Shown here in pieces: positions 9,318 to 44,039 of a stretch of 44,652 nucleotides of DNA. Every line of letters begins with the position of its first letter. Positions within the stretch are counted from its first letter, which is position 1. The stretch is from a virus (taxonomy: Duplodnaviria; Heunggongvirae; Uroviricota; Caudoviricetes): positions 1-44,652 of the IMG/VR virus record IMGVR_UViG_3300045988_039442; one strand, 5' to 3'. Both the position numbers and the translations under genes were made by a program. A model generated the notes under the pieces. It ran no database searches and was not told where the DNA came from. It saw only the letters and a list, made by a program, of their open reading frames with translations.

Positions 9318-10034
9318 AAGTAGCCATTCCTCTACTGTAGGGGGTTTAACCATCTCTATGGTATGCCTCATTATGGCAGTTCGATGCAGTTTGTCCGTTA
9401 TGTCAGGTAGTCTTGCCTTAGTTTTCGGCACATTTATAGCTACGTTTGTGCTGTCAGCGCTGTCGAAAGGGTAGCGGCTCAAGGCCCGCCCATCCAGCAT
9501 TCTAAGGCCGTGGAGTTTTACATCCAATTTCCTGTTTCTATAAACCGCATTAAATGCCTGGTCCATTCTTTTCCCCCATGACTTAGACCGTATGGCCCTG
9601 TGCGGTCCGCAGCAACCTATCGCTACCCGATTGAACCCACGGCACAGTTTTACCAGTCTTCTTATACTTTCATCGCTGTGCCACACCGGGACCGCCTTAG
9701 ACCTTAACCAATCGGGGACAGTTTCTATTAATGCGTCGTTCTCTTCCTCCGTGCCCTCTATAACGTCCGGTATTATGAACCACTCAATACGACTGAACCA
9801 CTCTCCGACAAAATCATAATATCCTGCCCAGTGGGCGCTCCAGTCTATGTTGTCCGGTGCTTTCTTCCACGTCGAAAAAGCTCCGTTGTCCAACACTAAT
9901 TTACATCTCGTGGCGGCTATCTTTCGTATTTGATCGGGGCGGGCGTATGATACCAGAGCACCACCACCTCGGTACAATGCTTCTATAAGCTCATCCCCAC
10001 CCCAAATAGGGCCTCCGTGGTAATGCACTGTCAT
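9300..10034 (-). CDS. tRNA-guanine transglycosylase/DpdA-like protein (candidate 7-deazaguanine DNA base-exchange enzyme)
   Basis: LVLDNGAFS segment resembles the TGT catalytic-Asp region (LTDSGGFQ) and HGLRMLD a second Asp region; no CxCxxC zinc motif seen; assigned from memory of the fold, not by search. Confidence 0.4.
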   Translation of the reverse strand: MTVHYHGGPIWGGDELIEALYRGGGALVSYARPDQIRKIAATRCKLVLDNGAFSTWKKAPDNIDWSAHWAGYYDFVGEWFSRIEWFIIPDVIEGTEEENDALIETVPDWLRSKAVPVWHSDESIRRLVKLCRGFNRVAIGCCGPHRAIRSKSWGKRMDQAFNAVYRNRKLDVKLHGLRMLDGRALSRYPFDSADSTNVAINVPKTKARLPDITDKLHRTAIMRHTIEMVKPPTVEEWLLKTKAP

Positions 10035-10495
10035 TTAATTTTCCTCAGCAAGAACGACCATAAAGCTCCGCCAAAAACCTTAGCCACGAATTGGCCCAGT
10101 ACGACTAGCGGCATGAAGGCCCCGAAAGCTATTAGTGGGAAAATAAAAGAGTCCACCGCCGAGGCCGCTGTATTACTTACGTTTGACTTAACCAACCACT
10201 TTTTATTGATCAGTGCCTGGTAGACAACGGCATCTATGGCGGCTGCAAAAGCGAAGGCAACAACGCTTGCCATAGCAATCTTGCCGGTTGCCGGGTTTAT
10301 GGAGAAACTTATAATGCCAGTTACTAGTATCAGTATGAATATTTTTTGTACACCAATCCTCTCGTGCAACTTATCTCTTATTACGAAATCAAGCCCAATA
10401 AGTAGAAAGGCGTTTACCGGTGTCGCCCACGGACCAAACACAGTTACCGAAAAGTTAGCGGCGCATATCGCCGCTACGTAAATTGCATACATCAT
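10031..10495 (-). CDS. small polytopic membrane protein, possibly YhhQ/COG1738-type queuosine-precursor transporter
   Basis: Four to five TM helices; stop overlaps the start of the downstream DpdA-like gene (ATGA); SNVSNTAASAVDSFIFPLIAF resembles a DUF165 motif as I recall it. Confidence 0.35.
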   Translation of the reverse strand: MMYAIYVAAICAANFSVTVFGPWATPVNAFLLIGLDFVIRDKLHERIGVQKIFILILVTGIISFSINPATGKIAMASVVAFAFAAAIDAVVYQALINKKWLVKSNVSNTAASAVDSFIFPLIAFGAFMPLVVLGQFVAKVFGGALWSFLLRKIK

Positions 10496-10499
10496 CTTA

Positions 10500-10658
10500 T
10501 CACCCCCAGTTACGGGCAGCGTTTGCGGCTAGTGCAATCGTTTCTTCAAAAATGTAGTCTAGTTTAACAATCTGGCGCATTTTACGGCGGAACTTACGTT
10601 TGTCTCCGTTTTTCGAACTTAAATTAGTATTTACGGTAATTCTTTTTGCTAATTTCAT
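10500..10658 (-). CDS. small basic protein (52 aa), first gene of the leftward operon
   Basis: ATG at 10658 preceded by AGGAGACG; the same leader is found at 12463 and 43623. Confidence 0.4.
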   Translation of the reverse strand: MKLAKRITVNTNLSSKNGDKRKFRRKMRQIVKLDYIFEETIALAANAARNWG

Positions 10659-10682
10659 TTTTCGTCTCCTGTTTAAGTTAAC

Positions 10683-10714
10683 TGAATAGTACCCTATTAT
10701 ATTGGTGTCTGCAA
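10683..10714 (-). promoter_or_regulatory. conserved promoter/operator element, copy 1, leftward
   Basis: TGAATAGTACCCTATTATATTGGTGTCTGCAA; minus strand reads TTGCAGAC ... TATAAT; contains the AATAG-N4-CTATT palindrome. Confidence 0.55.
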
Positions 10715-10758
10715 TTATTATTTTTATGCGGTACACTGTCGATACTACAGGAGGGCTT

Positions 10759-11802
10759 ATGAGCTTACTTACATCCCTAATCAGCCACCAGATATGGCTG
10801 CAACGCGCCGCGTCCGGTGAGGTGAAAGACCTCGCGCCGTTCCTTCAGGAGATGAGGGACGAAATCAAACGGCAGGTGCTGTTATTCGGCGACGACGGGC
10901 GTAGCACCGCGCGACTGAATAAACTGTTACGCGACCTGGAAGAAGCACTGAGCGGACTTACAGGCGACTGGCAAACAAAGCTGACAGAAGACCTTAAGGA
11001 ACTAGCGGCGTATGAGGCGGAGTGGAATGTAAAAACGCTGACGGCTAGCGTTAACGCGGAATTTGTTACACCTACCGCTGAACAGGTGTGGTCCGCTGCC
11101 GAGTTTCAACCGCTCTCATTAAGCGACAAACCAGTTGATTTCACCAAGCTGATGTCGGGCTGGAGTGAAACAGAAGTCGCGCGCCTTGTAACCGGCGTTA
11201 AAATGGGTTTCGTACAAGGCCAAACCACACGGCAGATTGTTAAAAGCGTAGTCGGCGCTGGCGGACTGGCAGACATCTCGGAACGAAACGCAGCTACAGT
11301 AATACGTACTGCGCTGTCTCATGTGTCCAACGAAGCCCGTAACGAGACGTACCGCCAGAACGACGACATCATTGAGAAATACGAAATAGTCGCCACACTC
11401 GACAGCCGTACATCAACAATATGCCGTAGCCTGGACGGGCAGGAATACGAAATCGGCAAAGGTCCGAGACCCCCTTTCCATCCTAACTGCAGAACGACCA
11501 CTGCGCCCGTAATCAGTTCCGAGTTCGATTTCCTGGATAAAGGAGCGAAACGCGCAGCTAAGGGCGCAGAAGGCGGTACTCAGGTAAGCGCGGACACAAC
11601 CTATTACGAGTTCCTTAAACAACAACCGGCGTGGTTTCAGGATGAAGCGATCGGCCCGGTGCGGGGTAAGATTTTCCGCAACAGCGGTATATCGCCGGAA
11701 GAGTTTCGCGTAATATCTGTAGATGGTTTCGGGAATCCGCTCACGCTTAAGCAGATGGCGGAACTCGATAAACGTGTTGCTGATTATCTGAAAGGAGAAT
11801 AA
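10759..11802 (+). CDS. head morphogenesis protein (minor head protein, SPP1 gp7/Mu F-like)
   Basis: Position after the portal; about 348 aa; ATG at 10759 with RBS ACAGGAGGG. Confidence 0.6.
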   Translation: MSLLTSLISHQIWLQRAASGEVKDLAPFLQEMRDEIKRQVLLFGDDGRSTARLNKLLRDLEEALSGLTGDWQTKLTEDLKELAAYEAEWNVKTLTASVNAEFVTPTAEQVWSAAEFQPLSLSDKPVDFTKLMSGWSETEVARLVTGVKMGFVQGQTTRQIVKSVVGAGGLADISERNAATVIRTALSHVSNEARNETYRQNDDIIEKYEIVATLDSRTSTICRSLDGQEYEIGKGPRPPFHPNCRTTTAPVISSEFDFLDKGAKRAAKGAEGGTQVSADTTYYEFLKQQPAWFQDEAIGPVRGKIFRNSGISPEEFRVISVDGFGNPLTLKQMAELDKRVADYLKGE

Positions 11803-12263
11803 TGATGGGCTTTTTCAAAGTAACTGATGTTCCGTCACGTCGCGTAGTCCAGTACGCCCGCGTGTCTGGCTCTGGTGAGAACGCGGTGTTTATTGAAGAT
11901 GAAAGTGTACTAGGTACACCGGTAGACGATATGCCGTTTGCAGATAAAACCGGTATTGCACTGCCTGCGGCGGGTATGCTTTACGAGATTCCGTATCTGG
12001 AAGACGCGGGCGACGTGTATTTCTCTGTGCAACCGAAAGACGCGGAACTGGTAGACGGAAGCGCGGTAATCACGGTAGAAGTTAAGGCGGGTAAAGCTCC
12101 GTACGCTCTGACCTGGTACAAAGACGGGAAGGAAGTTGTCAACGCGCCAGAAGAGGCTTTATCTCTGACAGTAAACGCGGTTGGTGAATACTTCGTTAAA
12201 GTTACTGATGCTGATGGTGTAGAGGCCGTCAGTAAAGCGGCGAAGGTAACTAAGCCGGAATGA
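11802..12263 (+). CDS. hypothetical virion-associated protein with Ig-like segment
   Basis: ORF track entry; the WYKDGKEV stretch is Ig-like. Confidence 0.45.
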   Translation: MMGFFKVTDVPSRRVVQYARVSGSGENAVFIEDESVLGTPVDDMPFADKTGIALPAAGMLYEIPYLEDAGDVYFSVQPKDAELVDGSAVITVEVKAGKAPYALTWYKDGKEVVNAPEEALSLTVNAVGEYFVKVTDADGVEAVSKAAKVTKPE

Positions 12264-12290
12264 TAAAAGGCCCCGAAAGGGGCCTTAGCT
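12263..12290. terminator. bidirectional hairpin terminator
   Basis: AAGGCCCC-GAAA-GGGGCCTT. Confidence 0.6.
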
Positions 12291-12463
12291 TATACATCTC
12301 TACTCGCTAGATAATCGCAGCGGGCTATCGCTAAATATAAGCTAGCGTATGCGCTATCAGCTTTAGCATGGGTAAACCCAGAAATCATTACGTAGTACAC
12401 TCCTTTATCGTTTAGAACCCAGTATTTACCGTTTTCGTGCATTATGTCTTTTTCTTTGAACAT
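12290..12463 (-). CDS. hypothetical small protein (57 aa)
   Basis: ATG preceded by AGGAGA within the same conserved leader as at 10658; below the ORF-track cut-off. Confidence 0.4.
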   Translation of the reverse strand: MFKEKDIMHENGKYWVLNDKGVYYVMISGFTHAKADSAYASLYLAIARCDYLASRDV

Positions 12464-12487
12464 TTTTCATCTCCTGTTTAAGTTAAA

Positions 12488-12519
12488 TGAATAGTACCCT
12501 ATTATATTGGTGTCTGCAA
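12488..12519 (-). promoter_or_regulatory. conserved promoter/operator element, copy 2, leftward
   Basis: Identical over 32 bp to 10683-10714. Confidence 0.55.
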
Positions 12520-12585
12520 ACTATTTATTTACCTATTCCGGTTATTCCACCCAATTGTAAATGTTGGAATAAACTATTCGAATAG

Positions 12586-12729
12586 TTGACTTTTCACTAA
12601 AAATGTGCTAAGCTCCACCTGAGCTTGTGAAGTATGAACAAGCGACCGCGGTGCGGCAGGAGAACGGAGCGGTGCGTTAGCACTGAGTGTAGTGTCGCTG
12701 CCCGCATTCGGAAGGGCCATACTCTATTG
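12586..12729 (+). ncRNA. conserved structured non-coding element, paralogue A
   Basis: About 80% identical to 43731-43873; own TTGACT-N17-TAAGCT promoter; indels not in multiples of 3; hairpins with compensatory changes. Confidence 0.45.
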
Positions 12730-12792
12730 CTTGTGTAAAAAGTAGCTGGTTTACTGAGATTACGCCGTTTCTATGTTTAAATGATAAGGACT

Positions 12793-12820
12793 AGCGCCCC
12801 GCTTTAAGGCGGGGCTTTAC
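12793..12820 (+). terminator. rho-independent terminator
   Basis: GCCCCGC-TTTAAG-GCGGGGC followed by TTTACTT. Confidence 0.55.
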
Positions 12821-12839
12821 TTATCGAGAAAGGAGAAAC

Positions 12840-13226
12840 ATGAATCTTAAAGCAACTGTCGTAGCGGGAGCATGTTTCATCATCCTGGCTTACGCACACG
12901 GCATCTACCAGTACCGCAGCGGCTGGAACGAAGGCCGCGCTAATCTTGTTTCTCAGCAACAGCAGAAAGCACAGGTTGAGCTGGCGAAGAAAACACAACG
13001 GCAGCAGCAGGATGAATCAAAGGCTGCAGCCGCTGACAACGAAGGCAAGACGAAATCAGAGGTGATCACCCGTGAAGTCGTTAAGTACATTAAAACGCCT
13101 GGCCGCAGCGTGTGCACTTTCGACGATGCTCGCGTCCTGCTCAAGTCCCGCGCCGTCGCCAACGCCAACTCCATCCCCGGATATGACGATGATGCAGCCG
13201 CCGTGCAAACTGGCGCAGCCAAGTAG
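12840..13226 (+). CDS. i-spanin (Rz-like)
   Basis: N-terminal TM segment, Gln-rich coiled-coil periplasmic region; RBS AGGAGAAAC; contains an overlapping lipoprotein gene in another frame. Confidence 0.6.
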   Translation: MNLKATVVAGACFIILAYAHGIYQYRSGWNEGRANLVSQQQQKAQVELAKKTQRQQQDESKAAAADNEGKTKSEVITREVVKYIKTPGRSVCTFDDARVLLKSRAVANANSIPGYDDDAAAVQTGAAK

Positions 13227-26593: not shown

Positions 26594-26955
26594 ATATTAA
26601 CGACTACACGGGCATACCTTACGACTTTCGTAAACGCAATTGCTGGCATCACGTTCGCATTGTCCGCGCGGATGCCGGATTAGAGACCCCCGCGTTCGAC
26701 GTTACAAGCCCAACGGCGATTAACGATGCGTTCGATGAAGGGCATCGCGATACAAAGGGGCTTACAAAAATCGATAGGCCTGAAAACTTCTGTGCCGTGC
26801 TTATGGGGTATCGCCGTGGTGGTCGTATCGTGTGGCACGCGGGAGTTTACTTTGACGGGATGGTGAGTCATTGCGAACTTGCCTCACGTCAGGTACGGCT
26901 TGACAGGCTGGCGGACCTCAGAGACACGTACACGGAGATTGAATTTTGGCGATAA
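26590..26955 (+). CDS. tail assembly protein with NlpC/P60-like Cys/His motif (lambda K C-terminal-like)
   Basis: Candidate catalytic Cys (RNCWHH) and His (VWHAGVYFDGMVSHC); position before the tip protein. Confidence 0.45.
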   Translation: MNINDYTGIPYDFRKRNCWHHVRIVRADAGLETPAFDVTSPTAINDAFDEGHRDTKGLTKIDRPENFCAVLMGYRRGGRIVWHAGVYFDGMVSHCELASRQVRLDRLADLRDTYTEIEFWR

Positions 26956-29516
26956 TCCTGCACTACACGCGAAACGCCGACGGGGCTTTCGACCGTACAA
27001 AACACGTCGGGATGCCGATGGAGTTTGTCGTTAACCACATTCCCGACGGCGTACCTGTACGCGTCTACCTCGGCGAGATTGGCGATGATACTGATGTCAC
27101 CGACGACTTCGACGCGCTTAAAGACGAAGACGCCGTGTACCACATTATTGAGGGTGCTGGCGGCGGAATTGGCGACGCTATTGGGAGTGTATTCAGTTTC
27201 ATCCTTAAGCCAATCGCCAAATTGTTCGGGATTAACACGGCAGCTAACGCTAATTATTCCGCTACCAACAATCAGGCGGCGTCACCTAATAACAGTCTCA
27301 CTGACCGCTCAAACAAGCCACGACCTTATGAGCGTTCTTATGACATCTGCGGGACAGTGCAGACTATCCCCAATGACCTGATGCAGACATATAAGGTGTT
27401 TAACGCTGCGGGGGCGCTTATTGAGTATGCGTACTATGACGCCGGTCGAGGGTATCTGCATATTGAGGAAGACGGTGTAACTGAGGCAGATACCAGAATA
27501 AGTGAGATAACAGGTTCGTCGGTGGCGGTATATTCTCCTTACACTTCGCCGAATAATACCAGCACCCCCCAATTGCATATTGGCGACCCGATAGACCAGA
27601 AGTTGTACATTACATTTAAAAATGCCGATGTCGATGGCGCTGTCCTTCCCGCACCTAATGACATCGCGATAGACGTCGCTCTGTATACTGTACAACGACA
27701 GGGCCCAACAGGCATTGTCGTTGGTAGTGATGCCGGTTTTGACGAAATAATTTCAGTAGGTGACTTGGTCTATTTTGACAACGTCTACGCAGATACGACT
27801 CCAACCTATCAAGGCGATGAAGTTAACCTGGATGGTCGCTATACGGTACTTTCAGTGAGCGAGACCACACTTATCGTTGATATAAGCCCAAATCAATCGG
27901 TATGGAACCAAATAGGAACCGCCCAATGGGAAATAGACGCCAACGTAGGTAATCATCTTATCGGCCCGGCGGACACTTACGCGGCTTCTCTCTCTGAATG
28001 GGCGTACATCACCCGCGGTACTGTCGACCGTGTTGTAGCCAATGTCGCCGCCAGCAACGGCATGTATAAATACAACGGCGATTATAATCGTGCCTCCGTA
28101 ACGGTGGAACTGCAATACCAGATGGTGGACGAATTGAAACAGCCCGTTGGCGATATATTCACCGTGCAAGGCACTGTTACAGGGAGAAACACTGATTACA
28201 CTGGTATTACCTTATATGGTAGTTTGCCTACTGCTTCCCGATTCCGCGCCCGTATGCGTCGTGTTTCTGACACCGATAAAGATTTTGAGGGTACTGTTAG
28301 TGACGAGGTTACTTTCACTAATCTGTACGGGCAGTCACTGGATACAACCCCGCACTACGGCAACCGCACTACCGTACACTGCGCTCGTAAACAAACGCCA
28401 CGTGCCGCGGAGGTGTCCGAACCGGAACTACGCATGATTGCTACCGAGATGTGCTACAAATACCTCGGAAATGGCGTATTCGATACGGCAATGACACCGA
28501 ACACTCAGGCCGTGCAGTCACTAATCCGCTTGGCTCGCGACCCCGCGGTGGGTAATCTGGAACTGACAACGGCAAACATGGACAAGTTACTCGCCGTTCA
28601 GGAAGAAATTGAGTCTTATTTTGGTAGTAAATTAGCTGGACAATTCTGCTACACGTTCGACGATTACGACACAACTATGCAGGACATTGTTCAGACCATA
28701 GCGGAAGCCGTGTTCTGTACAGCGTACCGTAAAGGTGCAGATATTATGCTGCGATTCGACCGTCCGGTCGCGGGGCCGGAGATGGTGTTCACTCACCGCA
28801 GCAAAACGACCGGTACAGAGAAATGGACGCGCACGTTCAACGATTCGACAACCTACGATAGCCTGTCGTTCTCGTACATCGACCCGGATACGAACGTACA
28901 GGAGACAATTTATATCCCGGAAGAACTCGGTGCAAATACCGAGGAATACGAATCGAAGGGCGTGCGCAACTACCAGCAGGCGTACTGGCTCGCGTGGCGT
29001 CGCTACCAGCGCAACACGTTAAGTAAAGTTGTCGTAGAGTTCGAAGCTACAGAAGAAGGCGCCCTCGCTACCCCTGGCGGTGTAATCAGCGTGGTTAAAG
29101 GTTCACGCATTGCGCCACAAGACGGCTATGTTGTTGCCGTTAATGGGCTTGCGCTTACGCTGTCTCAGCCAGTTACATTTACTCCAGGTGACGACCACTC
29201 CATCATCCTCAAGAAGCGCGACGGCTCGGTGCAAAGCATCTCTGTTATCAAAGGAAGCCACGACCGCGAAGTGATTATGCTCTCTGCGCCGGAGGAGGCA
29301 ATCTACACGGGGAATAGCGCACTAAAAACTGAGTTTTCATTCGGCAACGAAGCAAGGCATAATGCTCAGAAGATAGTTGTTTCTTCAATAGACCCGGGCG
29401 ACGACCGCACGGTCAAGATTACTGGCTACAACTATGATGACGGATTCTACAAATACGACGGCGTCGCGCCATACGGCAGCGGTTTCTCCGACGGATTCAG
29501 CAATGGTTTTAATTAA
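26946..29516 (+). CDS. tail tip/host-specificity protein (J-like)
   Basis: 856 aa at the end of the tail module; TTG start as in the ORF track (ATG at 27012 is the alternative). Confidence 0.6.
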   Translation: MAIILHYTRNADGAFDRTKHVGMPMEFVVNHIPDGVPVRVYLGEIGDDTDVTDDFDALKDEDAVYHIIEGAGGGIGDAIGSVFSFILKPIAKLFGINTAANANYSATNNQAASPNNSLTDRSNKPRPYERSYDICGTVQTIPNDLMQTYKVFNAAGALIEYAYYDAGRGYLHIEEDGVTEADTRISEITGSSVAVYSPYTSPNNTSTPQLHIGDPIDQKLYITFKNADVDGAVLPAPNDIAIDVALYTVQRQGPTGIVVGSDAGFDEIISVGDLVYFDNVYADTTPTYQGDEVNLDGRYTVLSVSETTLIVDISPNQSVWNQIGTAQWEIDANVGNHLIGPADTYAASLSEWAYITRGTVDRVVANVAASNGMYKYNGDYNRASVTVELQYQMVDELKQPVGDIFTVQGTVTGRNTDYTGITLYGSLPTASRFRARMRRVSDTDKDFEGTVSDEVTFTNLYGQSLDTTPHYGNRTTVHCARKQTPRAAEVSEPELRMIATEMCYKYLGNGVFDTAMTPNTQAVQSLIRLARDPAVGNLELTTANMDKLLAVQEEIESYFGSKLAGQFCYTFDDYDTTMQDIVQTIAEAVFCTAYRKGADIMLRFDRPVAGPEMVFTHRSKTTGTEKWTRTFNDSTTYDSLSFSYIDPDTNVQETIYIPEELGANTEEYESKGVRNYQQAYWLAWRRYQRNTLSKVVVEFEATEEGALATPGGVISVVKGSRIAPQDGYVVAVNGLALTLSQPVTFTPGDDHSIILKKRDGSVQSISVIKGSHDREVIMLSAPEEAIYTGNSALKTEFSFGNEARHNAQKIVVSSIDPGDDRTVKITGYNYDDGFYKYDGVAPYGSGFSDGFSNGFN

Positions 29517-29528
29517 AGAGGACTCTAT

Positions 29529-31367
29529 ATGTCAAGCGGATGCGGTGACGTTTTAAGCCTGGCGGATTTACAAACCGCCAAGAAACACCAGATTTTCGAA
29601 GCCGAGGTTATTACTGGTAAATCCGGAGGAGTCGCCGGCGGTGATAATATTGATTACGCGACCAACCAGGTTACAGGGCAGACACAGAAGACGCTCCCCG
29701 CCGTGTTGCGGGATGCATGTTTTTCTCCTGTATCTTGGGACTTTTCTACTGGCGGCACGCTAACCGTTAATGATCGGGACAAAGTGGTTTATGACCCGGT
29801 GGGCAAAACGTGGTACTCGTACGCGGGTACGTTGCCGGTTGTAGTCCCCGCAGCATTTAACCCGGTCGGTAACGCGGACTGGAAACCTCAGACAGACCAT
29901 GATTTACGCGAAGAATTATCCGAAATTGACGGAGAAAAATTAGTAGGAACTTGCCCCGATGTGGCTACACTGCGGACGATAGAACCAACCGTATCTAACC
30001 AAGTTATCACGGTACGAGGCTACTACTCTGACACGCCCGGGCTTGGGGGAGGAACGTTTATAGCCTTTTCCAGTTCTGAGGCAGATGACGGCGTGAATAT
30101 TTTTGTTACCCCCGGCGGTAAGCGCTGGAAGAGAACAGGAAGTCACATCGATATTCCGGTAGAGAACGGGGGCATGATGGCATCTCGTACACCGGAGCAA
30201 AACAGTGAAGCTCTTGAGCGTATTCATTCTTGCCTTCCACAGACTGGAGGTAAATTAAGATTTTCAGATTTTTATGATATTAAGTATGGAGCTATATGTC
30301 CGCCACGCGTCATGTGGGAGGGTATTGGTAGAGACTCATGCGGCTTACGTAAAACAGGTAACGATGTTAAAACCGTTCCAGACCGTATGTGGCAAGGCGC
30401 ACCCCATAGCTTCTCCCTGGATTTTATTGCTGCTATTGACATGGATAGTAGCGTGGCAGGCGACCTTACCGGAAACTTTAGCCGTTCCGGCTGTATTACT
30501 GGTATGAGTTTGATTGGTGCCGCTACTGCAAAAAATGCCTATGGTATTTATAGTGCAATAAGCTATATGGTTCGATTAGAAGACCTGTATATAGAAAACG
30601 TGATGACAGGGTACCGAACAAGTGATAGCTGGCTTCAGGTGTTTGATTCACTTATCATTAAAGATGTTCAAGATGGCATTTCTGTAGACACCGGCGGCAC
30701 AACTTTTAACTTAAATAACGTTTATGTCAGGAATGTATCCCGGTGGGCATATAAGTTTACTAACATTACTTATTCCAATCTTAAAGGTTGTGCAACGGAT
30801 TATGTAACTGGTTCCGCTTATGTGTTCTTAGGGTGCACTAGTGTAGTTATGGACGGCTGCGGGGCAGAAGAGATTCATGGTAGCCTCTTTGAGTGTAATC
30901 AATCTCGCTTATCTATTAATGCCTTTCGTAGTGTTAATCTCACAGATACGGGAAGTGTTGCCTGCATCTTTACTCAATGTGCAGTCACCATTACTGGTAG
31001 CTACCTGCCGGAGTTTGCTGGTTCACCTACTAGCAAATACTGGCAAGTTAATGACACTACCATTAACCTGATTAATACCGTTGCACCGGCAGCCTCCCGT
31101 GTGCTGTGGGCAGCAGGTGTTTCGCAGTTTAACTACTCAGACTGGGGAGGTAATTATACAATCTGGGGTACGTACACATGGACAGCTGCTGGTTACAAAA
31201 TTAACGGCATTGCGCATGTATACGGGGATGCTCCCCCTGATTCTTCAGTCACCCAATTCGGCAATGGTGCGCGATGGGAGCTTCTGACACCAGTTGCTGG
31301 GCGACCTTATAAATGGGTCCATGTTGGCTCTGGTGTGTGGAAGGTTGCTGGTAATGTAACTAGCTAA
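29529..31367 (+). CDS. tail fibre/tailspike with predicted right-handed beta-helix C-terminal domain
   Basis: 612 aa; the C-terminal part is rich in Gly/Ser/Thr/Asn/Tyr repeats typical of beta-helix receptor-binding or depolymerase domains; AT-richer from about 30.2 kb. Confidence 0.55.
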   Translation: MSSGCGDVLSLADLQTAKKHQIFEAEVITGKSGGVAGGDNIDYATNQVTGQTQKTLPAVLRDACFSPVSWDFSTGGTLTVNDRDKVVYDPVGKTWYSYAGTLPVVVPAAFNPVGNADWKPQTDHDLREELSEIDGEKLVGTCPDVATLRTIEPTVSNQVITVRGYYSDTPGLGGGTFIAFSSSEADDGVNIFVTPGGKRWKRTGSHIDIPVENGGMMASRTPEQNSEALERIHSCLPQTGGKLRFSDFYDIKYGAICPPRVMWEGIGRDSCGLRKTGNDVKTVPDRMWQGAPHSFSLDFIAAIDMDSSVAGDLTGNFSRSGCITGMSLIGAATAKNAYGIYSAISYMVRLEDLYIENVMTGYRTSDSWLQVFDSLIIKDVQDGISVDTGGTTFNLNNVYVRNVSRWAYKFTNITYSNLKGCATDYVTGSAYVFLGCTSVVMDGCGAEEIHGSLFECNQSRLSINAFRSVNLTDTGSVACIFTQCAVTITGSYLPEFAGSPTSKYWQVNDTTINLINTVAPAASRVLWAAGVSQFNYSDWGGNYTIWGTYTWTAAGYKINGIAHVYGDAPPDSSVTQFGNGARWELLTPVAGRPYKWVHVGSGVWKVAGNVTS

Positions 31368-31396
31368 AACTAAGGCCCCAAACGGGGCCTTTTCTC
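31368..31396. terminator. bidirectional hairpin terminator between the convergent structural and replication blocks
   Basis: AAGGCCCC-AAAC-GGGGCCTT followed by TTCT. Confidence 0.65.
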
Positions 31397-31533
31397 TACT
31401 CTCCTGATAACTTCTCCAGTATAAACGCCAGTTGCGCATTAGCGGCGTCTCTCTGTTGCCGTAGTCGTAGAACCTCTTCTTCGAGTTCCTTGATACGTTT
31501 TTGCAATGCCGGAATCGGGGCCATGATGTTCAT
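31396..31533 (-). CDS. hypothetical small coiled-coil protein (45 aa)
   Basis: ATGA overlap with the upstream gene; below the ORF-track cut-off. Confidence 0.3.
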   Translation of the reverse strand: MNIMAPIPALQKRIKELEEEVLRLRQQRDAANAQLAFILEKLSGE

Positions 31534-31709
31534 TTCTTAAAATCCTTATACAATTCTGCGACACCGGCAGCCAACAGCATCATTCCCGCGCCCACCATCA
31601 CACCCGCATCAAAGGTTTTTCCGTCCAAGATACCGCACAATAATAATACCGACCCAGGCCCCACTCGGCAAAATAGCCACAAAACTATTAATGCTGTATT
31701 AAATTTCAT
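31530..31709 (-). CDS. small membrane protein (about 59 aa)
   Basis: ATGA overlap with the helicase stop; two hydrophobic segments. Confidence 0.35.
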   Translation of the reverse strand: MKFNTALIVLWLFCRVGPGSVLLLCGILDGKTFDAGVMVGAGMMLLAAGVAELYKDFKK

Positions 31710-33130
31710 TTCTTACCTCGTCTCTTCATGTAATTAAGCAACTCTTCCTGCACCGATTTCTTCTCGTCTGTACGCGCGGCAACAACCTCGTCCAGCGTGT
31801 CTTTAGCGACGATGTGGTAGAGGAACACCGGTCGTTCGTGGCCTGCCTGTTTCTGGCGGACCGGGCCTATACGTTCGACGACCTGCAAATAGTGCTCAAG
31901 GTTCCAGCCCTGCGAAATAAACGCCAGATGATGCCCGCCGTCCTGTAAATTCAAACCATGACCGGCTGACGCAGGATGTACGCATAGGATTTCGATTTCA
32001 CCACGGTTCCACGCTTCCATCTGCTTATTACCCTTAGCGCCTTTAGCAAACGCCTGTGCTTGCGGGAATCGCTTAAGGATGCGCTCCAGTTCGTGCTTGA
32101 ACTGATAGGCCACCAGCAACGGCGCGCCCTGTAACTCCTCAACAATGGACTCAAGCGCATCCAGTTTCGTATCGTGCACTTTCTCCCAGTCTTTCGTTGC
32201 TTCGCCATCCGGTCCTGACACGTACACGGCACCAGAAGCAATCTGCAGGCACTTCGACGTCTTCGCTGCCGCGTTAGCCGCTTCAACTTCTCCGCTCTCC
32301 AGTTCCGCGAATAACTTTTCCTCCATATCTATGTACGCCTGACGCGCTTTCTTCGGCAGGTCGATTTCAACTGGCACAATAATCGGAGCTTCGCAACCAA
32401 ACCACTCGGCGGCGTCAATAGTCAGGCTGATGTCCTTCATCTTCTGGTGAATTTCATTATCTGCTCCCGGGCGTGCGTGGTACTCCCGCGCCATAGCCGA
32501 TTTGCCTTTTTGCACCGAGTTAAACCAGCGGTCGGTGAACGCCGTGTATGAAGAACCGAGGCGCTCGCCTGCGTCTATAAACCAGTTCTGACCCCACAAG
32601 TCCTTGAGGCCGTTCGGTGACGGTGTTCCCGTAAGGTTTATCAGCCTCTTAACATTTCTAAATGCTACTTTACTAAGCGCCTTTGCCCTCTTGCTCCCGC
32701 CTGAACGGCTACGGAATGACTTAAGCTTCGTGCTTTCATCGTTAACTATCACAGTAAAGGGCCAGTCATCTACTCCGTAATAGTCGATAAGCCACTCTAT
32801 AACCTCATAGTTAATACAAATTACATTAGCGTCTGACTCCAGCGCAGCGATGCGGCGCTTTTCTGAACCGGTCGCGTCTATGACGCGCAGACACGGGAAA
32901 CCCCACTTAGTTTGTTCCGCGGGCCATGTACCTGACGCAACGCGCAGCGGGGCGAGTATTAACACGCGGTCGTCATCATTAAGTTGGCCGTTGCGGAACA
33001 GTCGGTTTAATGCCCACAGTACGCTGCCAGTCTTCCCGGCGCCCATGCTCGCCCATATGTTGCAGCGATTGTGCCGCAACATGAACGAGGTCATGAGCTT
33101 CTGGTATTCGCGCCTTTGAAACTTAGACAT
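31706..33130 (-). CDS. SNF2/DEAD-like superfamily 2 helicase
   Basis: Walker A GAGKTGS with downstream helicase motifs; ATG at 33130 chosen 2 nt after the methyltransferase stop (ORF track extends to 33448). Confidence 0.75.
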   Translation of the reverse strand: MSKFQRREYQKLMTSFMLRHNRCNIWASMGAGKTGSVLWALNRLFRNGQLNDDDRVLILAPLRVASGTWPAEQTKWGFPCLRVIDATGSEKRRIAALESDANVICINYEVIEWLIDYYGVDDWPFTVIVNDESTKLKSFRSRSGGSKRAKALSKVAFRNVKRLINLTGTPSPNGLKDLWGQNWFIDAGERLGSSYTAFTDRWFNSVQKGKSAMAREYHARPGADNEIHQKMKDISLTIDAAEWFGCEAPIIVPVEIDLPKKARQAYIDMEEKLFAELESGEVEAANAAAKTSKCLQIASGAVYVSGPDGEATKDWEKVHDTKLDALESIVEELQGAPLLVAYQFKHELERILKRFPQAQAFAKGAKGNKQMEAWNRGEIEILCVHPASAGHGLNLQDGGHHLAFISQGWNLEHYLQVVERIGPVRQKQAGHERPVFLYHIVAKDTLDEVVAARTDEKKSVQEELLNYMKRRGKK

Positions 33131-33806
33131 GATTAGCCTCGTAAACTGCTTTTGCGAAACCGCGCGGAGTAAGGCTGCGGATTGTTTTTGTTCTGGCGCT
33201 CTTTCCGCCGAGTTTAGCCCAACCAGGGTTATCTCCACTATCCGCGCTAACCACGGCAACGTCTGGCATAACAAACCCATTGCCCGTCCACAGGCACGTC
33301 TTTTTAACATACGCATCTCGCGCTGGAATAACATCCGGGAACATTGGATGTGCGTCGCCTTCCGGTAAATATCCACCGTATTCGTACGGATTGAACACGT
33401 AGTCTGGCTTACGCCATAGAGACGAAAGAACGCTAACAGGGTTTTCAATCATATAAGGTACGTTGTATTTTTTAGCCAGACGCGCCGCCACTTTGCATGT
33501 AATTACGGCCTCTACCTGAAAAGTTGGGTTATTCTTCCGCTTCGTTTCAAAATGCGCCGCACCGCTAACGGCTAAATCTGTGCACGGAGGGAACGCAAAA
33601 ATAATATCCGGCGCAACGCCGAAGTCGAATCTATTATCAATCCACGCGTTTATATAATGGATATTTTCATGTACAACTTTTGCACCCAATCGTGCGTAGT
33701 CGCCGTGGTTAGCGCCGTCGTAGTTGAAACAATAGCAAGTATGGCCTGCTTCCGCCCACGGTTGGGCCATAAGGCCCGAACCGTCAAACAAGGACCAGAC
33801 AATCAT
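33123..33806 (-). CDS. short DNA (cytosine-5)-methyltransferase-like protein
   Basis: Motif I LFDGSG, motif IV FPPC, motif VI ENPV, C-terminal GNG; only 227 aa, so the target-recognition region is minimal. Confidence 0.55.
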   Translation of the reverse strand: MIVWSLFDGSGLMAQPWAEAGHTCYCFNYDGANHGDYARLGAKVVHENIHYINAWIDNRFDFGVAPDIIFAFPPCTDLAVSGAAHFETKRKNNPTFQVEAVITCKVAARLAKKYNVPYMIENPVSVLSSLWRKPDYVFNPYEYGGYLPEGDAHPMFPDVIPARDAYVKKTCLWTGNGFVMPDVAVVSADSGDNPGWAKLGGKSARTKTIRSLTPRGFAKAVYEANHV

Positions 33807-40827: not shown

Positions 40828-43095
40828 CTATTCCAAATCTTCCTCTGTCACTGTCAGCATTTCATTCGGTTCGTATATTGTCTTAGGAATCTTGTTATCA
40901 GTTATTCGGGTATTCAGTCTGTAACGGCCTGGTATTATCTGATTGTTTTCGTCAGTCCCCGGAACAAGATACCCGGCCTCAACCATTTTCTTAATCTTCC
41001 CGCGTTCTATGGCTTCTTTGGAGTTAAACGCCTTTGCGTTGGGGTCAGACTGTGCCAGCTTATTCGCTGCGGCTACCGTGATGCCTTCGTTGCCGTTGTA
41101 GGTTCCTTCCGCCAGTTCGAACGCTGCGAGTATCGTGGCCTCTGAACTGTTGACAGCGTTCTCTACGGTTTTACGTACGTTTTCTTTACCTTCCTTTGTC
41201 AGACCTTCTTCGCGCTCTTTCTCCTCGTCAGTTTTGAACGGCTCGAAACCCCACGGCATCAGAACAAGCGCCTTGTGCGGCTCAGGCAGGTCCAGGTTAA
41301 CGATTGTGCCGTATTCCTCTGTGCTACCCAGGAACTCAACCGCGCGGTACTCTTTCGGGGGTGGCGCTTCACGGAACTGTACCGACTCAAGCACCATGCC
41401 GACAGTTTTTTGTTGTGGGCCGTGTTTGAATTTAGAGTGGTATACGTTTATCTGACGGTCGGTAGCGCGTTCAATTGTCAGTTCCACGTCGACGCCCGCA
41501 TACAGCGCCCCACTGCCGCGGGCTTTCTTTCCACCCTTCGGTGTGTGGTGGACGACGCCCACTGCAGCTTTAGTCGCGTCACGTACTTCTTTCAGGATGG
41601 CGATAACTTTACCCATGCCGATTGCCGTTGATGAACTGTTCTCGTCGAACTTATCAATCGTCAGCGCCAGCGTCTGGTTAAGGGTATCAAACGCGACCAT
41701 ACCGATGGGTTCGTCACCAGCAGTTTCACGCATCAACTTAATAAGGCTTTTCAGTTTTCCGACTTCGCCCATGTCGATGACATGTACATAATCTTTACCT
41801 TCCTCACCATATTTAGCCGCTAGTGCATCAATACGCGTACGTGTGGCTGCGCCGCCCTCACCGTCGATATAGAAATGGTGGCAGCGCTGAGTATCCGCCC
41901 CCGCAAACCGGTATCCGGCGGCGCTCAGGTACATCATCCCCAGCGTATAGAACGATTTGTACGTGCCAGATTCCCCGACAATATCCCAGATACAATCTGA
42001 CGGCATGTACCCTTCAACGACGAAATCCGCCTTTACCGGTTCCGGTAACTCGTCCTCCTCTGAGTCCTCATCGTCTTCCAGGTCGTCCAGGCTGCATGAA
42101 ACAGATTCTCGCGCACCCCAACCGATGGCCTCTGCGACTTCACTGAATGGCATCCCGGTCGCATCGCAAGCGTATTTCCACACCTCTTTCGGCGACATGC
42201 CTTCGGTCGCCGTAATGTCGGTGTCGTGAATCATGGTCACGTTTGGCGCTTCGTACCCCTCTCGCGGGAAGCACAGCAGGAAGTCGTCCGGGCGCGGGGT
42301 AGGGTCGCTGTAGTTTTCGGCGTGTTCTGGTGTAGCGGGCATCTTCAGGCCGCGTGGCGTCATGACACCGCCATACTCGAAGGCCAGTGCCTCGAACGCA
42401 TCAGTAAACGCAGTGCGCAGTTCTTCCGGTATCTGGTAGTCGGATGCGCTGCTAACGTCGACGGCGGGGATACCTTCAAGCAACTCGTACGGGTCAATCA
42501 GGTCGTTGCGGCGAGACCAGATAACCGTAGAGCCAACCGGTGGCAGGTACATCGGCTGCGACAGGGTGAACCCACTGCGGTCAGCACCCATGCCCTTGAA
42601 GAAGTGTTCCAGCAATCCATGACGAACACGGATGATGTCACCACCTTCGACCGGGCGGCCCAGAGGCATGACGACGCGAAAGCGCGGTGACTCGTCGGTA
42701 TGTGATGCCGTGGTGTAAATGCACATTGCCCGGCGGCTGCGCTTAACCAGGCGCACAGCTTCCTGATACTCCTCTGGCGTTGCACTGTCAAAGTCCAGAT
42801 AGGCAAGCGACGATTTGCTTACAGACGCGTCGCAGCGGTAGAAGAAGCCTTTACGCGCTTGCTTAAAGTCGCCTGTTTCCGGGTCTTTTACGGTGCTGTG
42901 CGTCGAGTCGCACGCGGCCGTGATATAGCCAGGCGCGGTCTTAGGGTTAATCCCGCCGCGAACAGCATCGAGCGGCTGGATTAACCCTTTCAGGTCGTCC
43001 AGTGTTGCCGTGTGTGTGGTTCTGACGTTTATATCCTTTTTCTCCGCCCGCGCGTTGCGACGGGACCACGAGTAGGATAAAATCACATCGGACAT
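40828..43095 (-). CDS. replicative primase-polymerase fused to P-loop helicase (AAA_25/RepA-like)
   Basis: Walker A GESGTYKSF in the middle; large N-terminal domain; ATG at 43095 after GAAGGA (ORF track uses GTG at 43137). Confidence 0.7.
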   Translation of the reverse strand: MSDVILSYSWSRRNARAEKKDINVRTTHTATLDDLKGLIQPLDAVRGGINPKTAPGYITAACDSTHSTVKDPETGDFKQARKGFFYRCDASVSKSSLAYLDFDSATPEEYQEAVRLVKRSRRAMCIYTTASHTDESPRFRVVMPLGRPVEGGDIIRVRHGLLEHFFKGMGADRSGFTLSQPMYLPPVGSTVIWSRRNDLIDPYELLEGIPAVDVSSASDYQIPEELRTAFTDAFEALAFEYGGVMTPRGLKMPATPEHAENYSDPTPRPDDFLLCFPREGYEAPNVTMIHDTDITATEGMSPKEVWKYACDATGMPFSEVAEAIGWGARESVSCSLDDLEDDEDSEEDELPEPVKADFVVEGYMPSDCIWDIVGESGTYKSFYTLGMMYLSAAGYRFAGADTQRCHHFYIDGEGGAATRTRIDALAAKYGEEGKDYVHVIDMGEVGKLKSLIKLMRETAGDEPIGMVAFDTLNQTLALTIDKFDENSSSTAIGMGKVIAILKEVRDATKAAVGVVHHTPKGGKKARGSGALYAGVDVELTIERATDRQINVYHSKFKHGPQQKTVGMVLESVQFREAPPPKEYRAVEFLGSTEEYGTIVNLDLPEPHKALVLMPWGFEPFKTDEEKEREEGLTKEGKENVRKTVENAVNSSEATILAAFELAEGTYNGNEGITVAAANKLAQSDPNAKAFNSKEAIERGKIKKMVEAGYLVPGTDENNQIIPGRYRLNTRITDNKIPKTIYEPNEMLTVTEEDLE

Positions 43096-43153
43096 ATTGT
43101 ATATTCCTTCAGCAAGTAATTTGGCCTCGGCGTTCACGCGTCGGGGCTTTCTT

Positions 43154-43444
43154 TTATCTATTGGCCAGGCATTCCATCAAATGTGCGTACTTACGATAAT
43201 AATCTACGACAATCTCATCGCCGAAATACTGATAAACGTACGATAAGTGGTCAGAGACATCAATGGAGGCCGACATTGTGCTGAGTCTTCGGAGACTAAT
43301 CAACTGCAATTCTTCTGTAACGCAAAACGGCGAATAAGAGTCCAGCTTACAAGAAACGTTAAAACACAACGCGTACTTGCCTTGCACTAAATAGACCATA
43401 TAAGAATTGTCGTTCTCTTTATCATGGAATATTACACCTTTCAT
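43154..43444 (-). CDS. hypothetical protein
   Basis: ORF track entry; ATGA overlap with the upstream gene. Confidence 0.45.
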   Translation of the reverse strand: MKGVIFHDKENDNSYMVYLVQGKYALCFNVSCKLDSYSPFCVTEELQLISLRRLSTMSASIDVSDHLSYVYQYFGDEIVVDYYRKYAHLMECLANR

Positions 43445-43623
43445 TTCACGTTCTCCTTAATCCACGCTTCAACTTTATTACGGTCAAATGTACCCGGTAA
43501 ACGGCGGCCCATAACCTTAATACAGCAATCCGGGAATTTACCACTGCGCAACCAGTTATTAATTGTCTGACGGGTCACCCCGATACGTTCTGCTACTTCA
43601 TTCTGGGTCATGTAATGCTGCAT
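43441..43623 (-). CDS. small HTH DNA-binding protein (AlpA/excisionase-like HTH_17), first gene of the replication block
   Basis: MTQNEVAERIGVTRQTINNWL motif; ATG at 43623 preceded by the conserved AGGAGA leader. Confidence 0.55.
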   Translation of the reverse strand: MQHYMTQNEVAERIGVTRQTINNWLRSGKFPDCCIKVMGRRLPGTFDRNKVEAWIKENVK

Positions 43624-43730
43624 TTTTATATCTCCTGTTTGTTTGGTGAAGCTGAGTATAGGATAGCGGGAATGTAAAAGCAACCAAAACGCCACACAAA
43701 GTTACTAAGATACAAAAGATGCTACTGGTA

Positions 43731-43873
43731 TTGACTTTTACTTAAAAATATGCTAAGCTTCACTGAGCTTGTGAGATATCGCAAGCGACCGCGGAGCGGC
43801 AGGGAACGCAACGCGTGCCATTAGGCACTTGAGTGTAGTTCCGCTGGCGCTTTCGGAAGGGCCAAAGTCTATT
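43731..43873 (+). ncRNA. conserved structured non-coding element, paralogue B
   Basis: About 80% identical to 12586-12729, including the TTGACT-N17-TAAGCT promoter. Confidence 0.45.
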
Positions 43874-44039
43874 GTTAATCCCGCCTAAATACCCAAGTCA
43901 CTGATAATTAAAAGTTTCTATAATTGCCGTAAACAAGGTAGAGAGTACTTCACTCCGCTGGGGTGGGCTAACGCCCACCCACTGCGTTGCGTACTCTTTT
44001 AAGAAACGAAAGAATCACAACGGCAACGTAACTATTCTC

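Follow-up and report, generated by a model that had tools for sequence, protein, structure and literature searches.

Kagunavirus tailspikes are built from an anchor and a receptor-binding domain (RBD), and the RBDs move among Kaguna-, Kutter-, Gamaleya-, Kayfuna-, Justusliebig-, Nouzilly-, Lederberg- and Uetakeviruses (Pas et al. 2023, PMC10408124). The serogroups covered by that work are O2, O8, O16, O18, O22, O26, O45, O77, O78, O103, O104, O111, O145 and O157 (PMC10408124). Kagunaviruses depend on O-antigen or capsule via the spike, as shown experimentally (Humolli et al. 2025, PMC11990801), and their tailspike gene sits immediately 3' of the gene for the J-like protein (PMC11990801). In the Ackermannviridae, tailspike proteins (TSPs) are sorted into subtypes at a cut-off of 75% identity (Sorensen et al. 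2021, PMC8432352), and the tailspikes of Kuttervirus are glycan-specific by experiment, mostly for O-antigen (PMC8432352). Here we analyze a viral DNA of 44,652 nucleotides (nt; positions 1 to 44,652 of IMG/VR record IMGVR_UViG_3300045988_039442; hereinafter designated the window) and its gene at 29529..31367 on the plus strand. With high confidence, we read this gene as the tailspike of a virulent Escherichia coli Kagunavirus that joins the anchor of the genus to an exchanged beta-helix cassette and likely uses an O-antigen as receptor.

Mosaic structure of the tailspike gene

The window is a Kagunavirus (Guernseyvirinae) siphophage genome. Positions 20000-44652 share ~89% nt identity over ~79% of their length with E. 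coli phages M01, CR01, K1H, fFiEco02 and NTEC3, and an exact 55-nt direct overlap of the contig ends (1-55 and 44598-44652) indicates that the contig is circularly closed and represents a complete genome of ~44.6 kb. The open reading frame (ORF) at 29529..31367 has an ATG start and encodes 612 amino acids (aa) plus stop, and its first 15 residues are the same as those at the annotated tailspike start of Kagunavirus fFiEco02. In the relatives M01, K1H and fFiEco02 the gene at the matching position is annotated as tailspike. PHROG tail-spike families match the protein with E values of 2e-49 to 1e-15, and the matches to PHROG tail-spike and tail-fibre families are confined to the first ~115-235 residues. 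The gene is located in the tail-tip block right after the J-like protein gene, which is the receptor-binding protein (RBP) slot of Kagunavirus. A first-pass annotation of the window, made from the sequence alone, had called the product a tail fibre; it is indeed a receptor-binding tail protein, but a tailspike rather than a fibre. Its parts are as follows.

29529..31367, plus strand: tailspike gene, in the single RBP slot of Kagunavirus (PHROG and Kagunavirus annotation)
29529..29921, plus strand: genus-specific N-terminal anchor, aa 1-131, with genome-like G+C content (GC) of 0.52 and Kagunavirus matches
29922..30004, plus strand: junction or linker, aa 132-158, the gap between the blastn matches to fFiEco02 and STML-13-1
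29946..30158, plus strand: conserved connector domain, aa ~140-210, common to tailspikes with different beta-helices
30159..31364, plus strand: exchanged receptor-binding module (AlphaFold2 secondary structure with predicted local distance difference test score (pLDDT) >90; fold and sequence matches)
30195..30304, plus strand: 110-nt exact tract shared with the tailspike of a Uetakevirus-like prophage in E. coli APEC-O117H42
30249-31028, plus strand: right-handed parallel beta-helix, aa ~241-500 (AlphaFold2 model, fold matches)
30400..31000, plus strand: deepest AT-rich trough, within the beta-helix (GC 0.38-0.44 in 300-nt windows)
31041-31355, plus strand: C-terminal beta domain, aa ~505-609 (AlphaFold2 model)
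31372..31391, no strand assigned: GC-rich hairpin (8 bp, 6 GC) 5 nt past the stop codon, a terminator-like site with its T-run on the minus strand

Nucleotides 1-393 of the gene, encoding the anchor, are ~85% (82-87%) identical to the 5' ends of about 200 Kagunavirus/Jerseyvirus tailspike genes, and the spikes matched in this way carry differing C-termini. Per-block aa identity to fFiEco02 is 0.87-1.00 up to aa 120 and falls beyond. In local blastn comparisons, the fFiEco02 backbone (L002) matches up to 29921 and picks up again, at 92%, with the final base of the stop codon (31367); the Kuttervirus match (L001) covers 30005-31379 and the E. coli prophage match 30030-31357, and at nt level the linker at 29922..30004 matches neither the Kagunavirus backbone nor the Kuttervirus homologue. 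The replaced segment starts with the linker, at about 29922, and ends with the stop codon (31366).

Many tailspike homologues show a break at aa 140. Among 120 homologues, those matching the N-terminus alone end either at aa 140 (85-89% identity) or at aa ~202-207 (66-73%), and matches to the C-terminal module start at query aa 43, 72 or 125, after differing N-termini. Many Kagunavirus tailspikes with unrelated C-termini can be aligned as far as aa 202-207. These break positions indicate a three-part protein made of the anchor (aa 1-~131), the connector (aa ~140-210) and a subtype-specific beta-helix part (aa ~211-612). The conserved anchor that the first-pass annotation placed in the first ~200 residues is therefore approximately right in extent but consists of two modules, a genus anchor of ~130 aa and a widely shared connector. 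PHROG families of diverse tail fibres and exopolysaccharide (EPS) depolymerases match aa 118-235, and a profile of the family matches the connector region in the PDB chains of Depo32, DpK2, CBA120 TSP2/TSP4 and WceF. The connector shows nt identity of 0.89-0.98 to the tailspike of a P22-like prophage, against 59% outside it, and is a likely 5' crossover region for module exchange.

At the other end, the hairpin at 31372..31391 is followed on the plus strand by TTTTCTCT, and the scan called no plus-strand terminator there. This hairpin belongs to the conserved backbone of Kagunavirus and marks the 3' border of the swapped cassette; STML-13-1 has another hairpin 3' of its tailspike homologue.

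We modelled the tailspike with AlphaFold2 as a monomer from an alignment of 55 sequences. The model has a mean pLDDT of 86.4, a predicted template modelling score of 0.75 and 387 residues with pLDDT >=90. Its N-terminal half contains a beta domain (aa 66-120), short helices (aa 124-148) and a small beta domain (aa 159-210), with pLDDT dropping to 63-75 at aa 121-140; the module that follows consists of a cap helix (aa 222-235), a long succession of short strands (aa 241-500) and a beta domain (aa 505-609). The break positions in the homologues coincide with linkers of the model, namely the low-pLDDT helical segment at aa 121-148 and the segment ahead of the cap helix. Foldseek matches the model to 6eu4, 24qi, 6w4q and 5w6h with E values of 6e-16 to 1e-12, and the family profile is homologous in sequence to 6eu4 across profile positions 173-495 (E 5e-11). 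The C-terminal part is a right-handed parallel beta-helix, as the first-pass annotation had predicted and as the matches to solved tailspikes bear out. Against the PDB the family profile retrieves mostly P22-type head-binding domains, owing to the P22-like members present in its alignment, and the informative matches are the connector region and 6EU4. By analogy, the tailspike is probably a homotrimer.

In fold the beta-helix is of the pectin-lyase-like type, and the module has no sequence-level match to Pfam pectate-lyase or beta-helix families. None of Pectate_lyase_3 (PF12708), Beta_helix (PF13229), P22 tailspike or endosialidase exceeds its family threshold; the sole match of the Pfam scan is Tail_spike_N at aa 77-112, below threshold (23.3 bits versus a cut-off of 25). 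An NCBIfam search of the protein gives no match, and a direct search of its sequence against the PDB returns nothing meaningful (top matches AIR synthase, E 0.3). The precomputed annotation of an identical protein lists PF27114 'Phage_tail_beta', which the local Pfam scan does not report.

Base composition changes along the gene with the onset claimed by the first-pass annotation, between ~29.9 and 30.2 kb. In windowed GC and third-position GC (GC3) the gene is not uniform: GC falls from 0.522 in nt 1-393 (GC3 0.534) to 0.459 in nt 509-1839 (GC3 0.392), with 0.509 for the whole window, and the shift is chiefly at third codon positions and mostly synonymous. The receptor-binding module at 30159..31364 has GC 0.45 and GC3 0.38, nt 900-1500 of the gene have GC 0.426 and GC3 0.363, and in 300-nt windows GC is lowest, 0.38-0.42, at 30.5-31.0 kb. 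Among the window's 20 ORFs that reach 200 aa or more (mean GC3 0.559, standard deviation 0.060), the tailspike gene has the lowest GC3, 0.425, and just 3% of same-length windows of the contig are as AT-rich as its C-terminal module. The AT-richness of the C-terminal part is real but not uniform, with GC back up to 0.49 in the last ~340 nt of the gene, and AT-rich patches of similar depth lie elsewhere in the contig at ~10.2, ~12.2 and ~43.1 kb. Across all seven readable backgrounds the cassette has GC 0.42-0.46 and GC3 0.32-0.40, with GC 0.43 to 0.51 in the DNA around it; the contrast visible in this gene arises from a low-GC cassette lying within a Kagunavirus backbone of 51% GC.

The Gly/Ser/Thr/Asn/Tyr-rich repeats reported for the C-terminal part reduce to a mild enrichment in Ser (9.1 vs 6.4%), Asn (5.3 vs 3.6%) and Tyr (4.7 vs 2.9%), with Gly unchanged and no repeats in the sequence. 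Tandem Repeats Finder detects nothing but a trivial 19-nt match in the tailspike gene, by which we reject tandem or direct sequence repeats as their basis. The repetitiveness of this part is structural, residing in the coils of the beta-helix.

The neighbouring upstream gene encodes the J-like protein, separated from the tailspike gene by 12 nt.

26946..29516, plus strand: J-like tail-tip/central-fibre protein of 856 aa (phrog_469 tail protein, E 2.5e-249)

Its product has weak Pfam matches to Phage-tail_3 and FNIII-A_GpJ and is the probable attachment platform for the tailspike. Within this gene, a break of ~420 nt in the nt match to fFiEco02 (27602-28022), with flanks matching at 81-85%, is perhaps a second segment of the host-recognition apparatus that varies and may have been exchanged. 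Downstream, 31367-31539 is 92% conserved with fFiEco02, which has two tiny minus-strand ORFs annotated there. Beyond it, after 31392-31705, a 580-aa helicase ORF with a TTG start (31706-33448, minus strand) is ~100 aa longer than its 474-aa fFiEco02 homologue, suggesting that its real start is probably internal. Elsewhere in the window, the AT-rich patches (~9900-10800, ~11900-12900 and ~42900-44000; GC 0.44-0.46, with a 600-nt minimum of 0.403 at 43151) hold small ORFs, among them a hydrophobic one of 154 aa (10031-10495) and one of 96 aa (43154-43444, GC 0.40), both on the minus strand, and may represent further acquired 'moron'-type genes.

Relatives and exchange of the beta-helix module

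The horizontal exchange of a receptor-binding module proposed by the first-pass annotation is supported by the neighbours of the two halves, which are Kagunavirus/Jerseyvirus for the N-terminal part and Kuttervirus myophages and E. coli prophages for the C-terminal part. The three outcomes it had named as speaking against its proposal (uniform composition, a fold other than a beta-helix, and the same neighbours for both halves) did not occur. With the gene as megablast query, 50,697 phage records give 214 matches, none spanning 80% of the query; for nt 509-1823 the Kutterviruses STML-13-1, BRM 13313 and pSC20 are the only ones to match, at 80% nt identity. STML-13-1 gp128 and the tailspike share 76% aa identity over aa 58-612 and 86% over aa 210-612; gp128 adjoins the 921-aa TSP2, which places it in the TSP1 position. 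None of the Kagunavirus isolates in GenBank (INPHARED, Aug 2025) has the beta-helix module, and the sub-lineage with this spike is so far known only from metagenomes: an identical protein is found on one JGI/ENA contig, members of the >=90%-identical cluster on four Logan contigs, and 76-89%-identical versions on other 38-45-kb contigs (clusters P0001-P0006). At 51-89% aa identity the module recurs in several phage and prophage contexts.

P0002-P0006: Kagunavirus-type contigs of ~38-45 kb, with full-length matches at 76-89% identity
P0007: siphophage contig of 46.5 kb with ERF/SSB genes
P0009: contig of 71 kb encoding two RBPs and a portal of SU10 type, which fits a G7C-like podophage
P0013: Kuttervirus TSP1, a module carrier
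P0010 and P0016: epsilon15-like prophages with 699-700-aa proteins, carrying tailspike, acyltransferase, two holins and a GH19 endolysin
P0025: P22-like prophages, in which gp7, gp20, gp16, Mnt, tailspike, acyltransferase and integrase follow one another

Nucleotide identity of the cassette is 79% to the Kuttervirus copy, with third-position identity of 0.3-0.6 in most blocks, and 88% to the copy in the 46.5-kb siphophage; the tailspike of the E. coli APEC-O117H42 prophage is about 81-82% identical to the module. How similar the gene is to a given partner varies in patches along its length. The 46.5-kb siphophage contig (L009) shares an exact run of 95 nt that overlaps the 110-nt exact tract of APEC-O117H42, and the P22-like copy shares one of 44 nt. 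For the APEC-O117H42 comparison, the longest run in codon-shuffled controls has a 99.9th percentile of 62 nt, and the runs of 110, 95 and 44 nt each lie above the 99.9th percentile of their respective controls. These tracts fit repeated recombination within a shared pool, to which local sequence conservation could contribute. In our reading, connector and beta-helix entered the genome separately from its other genes and belong to a pool of recombining cassettes spanning at least six lineages: Kagunavirus, the ~46-kb siphophage, Kuttervirus TSP1, the ~71-kb G7C-like podophage, and epsilon15-like and P22-like prophages.

APEC-O117H42 (L005, 8239-10338) and VE-T9 (L006, 5239-7341) carry what is apparently the same epsilon15-like prophage at one site by yfgI. 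The neighbour genes are identical and the RBDs have diverged (82% vs 76% nt identity to the window), a difference that suggests RBD replacement inside a resident prophage.

Two other origins of the AT-rich segment have to be weighed against acquisition from such a pool. Amino-acid and codon constraint of a beta-helix, or relaxed codon selection, could lower GC in a vertically inherited gene: the coils are rich in Asn, Ser, Thr, Ile and Tyr with AT-rich codons, first-position GC falls too, from 0.57 to 0.49, and the genome has other AT-rich patches. Yet the biggest drop is at synonymous third positions (0.53 to 0.39), the Kagunavirus match ends at 29921 and restarts precisely with the stop codon, genes of unrelated phages are 79-88% identical to the 1.4 kb in between, and the module is in none of the GenBank Kagunavirus isolates. 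The match borders and this absence refute vertical inheritance, which we regard as hardly credible. A gain in one step from a Kuttervirus (Ackermannviridae) during co-infection would account for three Kutterviruses being the sole matches among sequenced phage isolates and for a module GC (0.46) near that of the Kuttervirus locus (0.44). However, the low nt and third-position identities to that copy, together with copies as close or closer in the 46.5-kb siphophage and the E. coli prophage (81%, with the 110-nt exact tract), make such a donor improbable; the patchy similarity fits a shared pool and repeated recombination with no single identifiable donor, and we reject a single Kuttervirus donor as unsupported.

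Receptor and putative catalysis

In the proposed mechanism, the anchor would fix the spike to the tail tip, next to the J-like protein, and residues ~211-612 would bind the host surface polysaccharide. We infer that the module cleaves this polysaccharide as an endoglycosidase, allowing the virion to reach the outer membrane. The receptor is probably an O-antigen. The best candidate is that of E. coli O107/O117 specifically, an assignment that we hold as tentative, at slightly less than even confidence.

Module DNA is present in four of 5,426 complete E. coli genomes (APEC-O117H42, VE-T9, PSS-08-1 and GZ2408P), megablast and blastn agreeing. The O-antigen cluster of APEC-O117H42 has wzx and wzy of the O107/O117 family, and O107/O117 wzy is found in 20 of the 5,426 genomes, including all four module carriers. 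The prophage copies of the module adjoin O-antigen acyltransferase genes (P22-like and epsilon15-like), and in the remnant beside tRNA-Arg in PSS-08-1 and GZ2408P the tailspike adjoins a gtrA/gtrB/DUF6056 (gtrC-type) glucosylation operon. Where the first-pass annotation had left the choice between capsule and O-antigen, prophage context and host serogroup favour the latter. The gene clusters for the O107 and O117 antigens share 98.6% identity, and the two antigens differ by one sugar (PMC7685785). In the literature searched, no tailspike is described as specific for O117; the sole O117 phage paper found concerns a 170-kb T4-like phage unconnected with this module.

The remnant in PSS-08-1 and GZ2408P (L010 and L011, 6414-11168 in each; tRNA-Arg/intS) comprises essentially a P22-type tailspike with an RBD of this family, gtrA/gtrB/DUF6056 and an integrase only, that is, a receptor-modifying cassette and its cognate spike kept after decay of the prophage.

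Several points weigh against the assignment to O107/O117 and against the enzymatic reading. Sixteen of the 20 genomes with O107/O117 wzy lack the module. Three carriers share the remnant tailspike at 99.9-100% identity, and VE-T9 has a truncated version (17% of the query matched, at 97.4%); in both PSS-08-1 and GZ2408P it lies at the tRNA-Arg site. This near-identity indicates that the four carriers are probably one clonal lineage. The association of four out of four perhaps represents 2-3 independent acquisitions, and it could reflect another lineage-specific surface structure. Its treatment as four independent observations (hypergeometric p about 1e-10) is rejected because the same prophage remnant occurs in all. 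Sorensen et al. (2021) give host predictions for TSP2 and TSP3 of STML-13-1 and none for TSP1 (PMC8432352), and the Kuttervirus carriers are Salmonella phages, which makes a Salmonella O-antigen a possible target. As to the enzyme, no enzymatic Pfam or NCBIfam family matches the beta-helix module, and the AlphaFold2 model, low in confidence over the first 60 residues and poor only in aa 1-41, depicts a monomer.

Within the RBD family, the acidic residues D298, D304, D306 and D352 are invariant and D269, D285, D366 and E447 are at least 90% conserved, making all of them candidates for the catalytic site. The O107/O117 O unit consists of five sugars, neutral or N-acetylated (PMC7685785), and the cluster encodes rhamnose and GalNAc pathways with no uronic-acid step of its own. 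As this O unit has no uronic acid, we infer a hydrolase rather than a lyase. Also in line with a hydrolase, CBA120 TSP2, the nearest solved neighbour with a stated activity, is reported to bind and degrade the O157 O-antigen (PMC8432352).

Two other functions of the module can be set against an O-antigen-cleaving spike. It might instead be a capsule (K-antigen) or exopolysaccharide depolymerase, linked to O107/O117 via one clone with a particular capsule. Kagunavirus includes the K1-capsule phages K1G and K1H, with an endosialidase spike in the matching slot; the best structural neighbours (24qi, 6eu4, 7vz3 and 8iq5) are capsule depolymerases of Acinetobacter/Klebsiella phages; and the four E. 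coli carriers appear clonal. A capsular target is nevertheless unlikely: in three prophage types the module adjoins O-antigen-modifying genes (acyltransferase or gtrABC), which is the classical layout of phages with an O-antigen receptor, all characterised Kuttervirus TSPs target O-antigen, the one capsule exception in the family being TSP2 of Taipeivirus 0507KN21 (PMC8432352), and fold likeness at 14-18% identity is uninformative on substrate. That the beta-helix is a non-catalytic adhesin, binding glycan without cleaving it, also seems quite improbable, given that several Asp/Glu positions do not vary among homologues with 44-89% identity, that enzymatic tailspikes are the closest structural relatives, and that O16-dependent Kagunavirus spikes are described as enzymatic (PMC11990801). 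The O-antigen reading leads to a broader proposal, which we put forward with reserve: the beta-helix would be an RBD subtype with no previously assigned target, specific for the E. coli O107/O117 O-antigen and common to at least six phage lineages, among them epsilon15-like and P22-like prophages of O117 strains.

Significance and comparison with known tailspikes

That phages change host by swapping tailspike modules is well documented. The locus is a clean example of such host-range rewiring, with a cassette bounded by an inter-domain linker and the stop codon and revealed by its composition in a genome that is conserved elsewhere, and adds no new concept to a principle already well documented for these genera. 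The O107/O117 O-antigen as target of the module appears to be a new assignment, and it provides a testable serogroup prediction for a Kuttervirus TSP1 subtype and for a metagenome-only Kagunavirus group. If it is true, 'Salmonella' Kutterviruses such as STML-13-1 are predicted to attack E. coli O107/O117, and the tracts of exact identity would reflect ongoing exchange between virulent phages and prophages of the target serogroup. O107/O117 takes in avian-pathogenic and Shiga-toxin-producing strains, and the prediction might be used in phage typing, diagnostics and depolymerase engineering. The defined borders and the connector offer convenient splice points for synthetic RBD swapping on a small, engineerable siphophage chassis.

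Among described systems, the Kagunavirus tailspikes of Pas et al. share genus, gene slot and the combination of a conserved N-terminal anchor with an exchangeable C-terminal RBD. The exchange partners named here (Kutter-, Uetake- and Lederberg-like, probably also Gamaleyavirus) are all within their set, and the conserved connector with breakpoints at aa ~140 and ~205 agrees with their account (PMC10408124); the RBD itself is outside their 15 assigned subtypes/serogroups (PMC10408124).

Kuttervirus TSP1 (STML-13-1 gp128, BRM 13313 and vB_SenAc-pSC20), at 86% aa identity over the beta-helix and C-terminal domain, is above the 75% subtype cut-off in the receptor-binding part and has the same domain order past the anchor. 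By contrast, residues 1-~140 are unrelated to gp128 (per-block aa identity 0.07-0.45). The spike of the window carries the Kagunavirus anchor, so that only its RBD, not the whole protein, belongs to the TSP1 subtype of gp128. The N-terminal ~140 residues of Kuttervirus TSP1 attach to the branched TSP2/TSP4 complex in a myophage of 157 kb, whereas here the partner is a siphophage tail tip, and different terminator hairpins lie downstream of the two genes.

The solved depolymerases AS12 gp42 (6EU4, Acinetobacter phage), Belisarius gp86 (24QI) and CBA120 TSP2 (6W4Q/5W6P) have only 14-18% sequence identity to the module and act on differing substrates (Acinetobacter capsules, E. coli O157 O-antigen); their catalytic residues cannot be transferred by alignment. 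The tailspikes of P22/Sf6/HK620-type Lederbergvirus prophages have RBDs homologous to the module (51-59% identity) behind a P22-type head-binding domain (PF09008), in carriers with the P22 layout gp7/gp20/gp16-Mnt-tailspike-O-antigen modification. With these spikes the window tailspike would share the same logic, binding and cleavage of an O-antigen.

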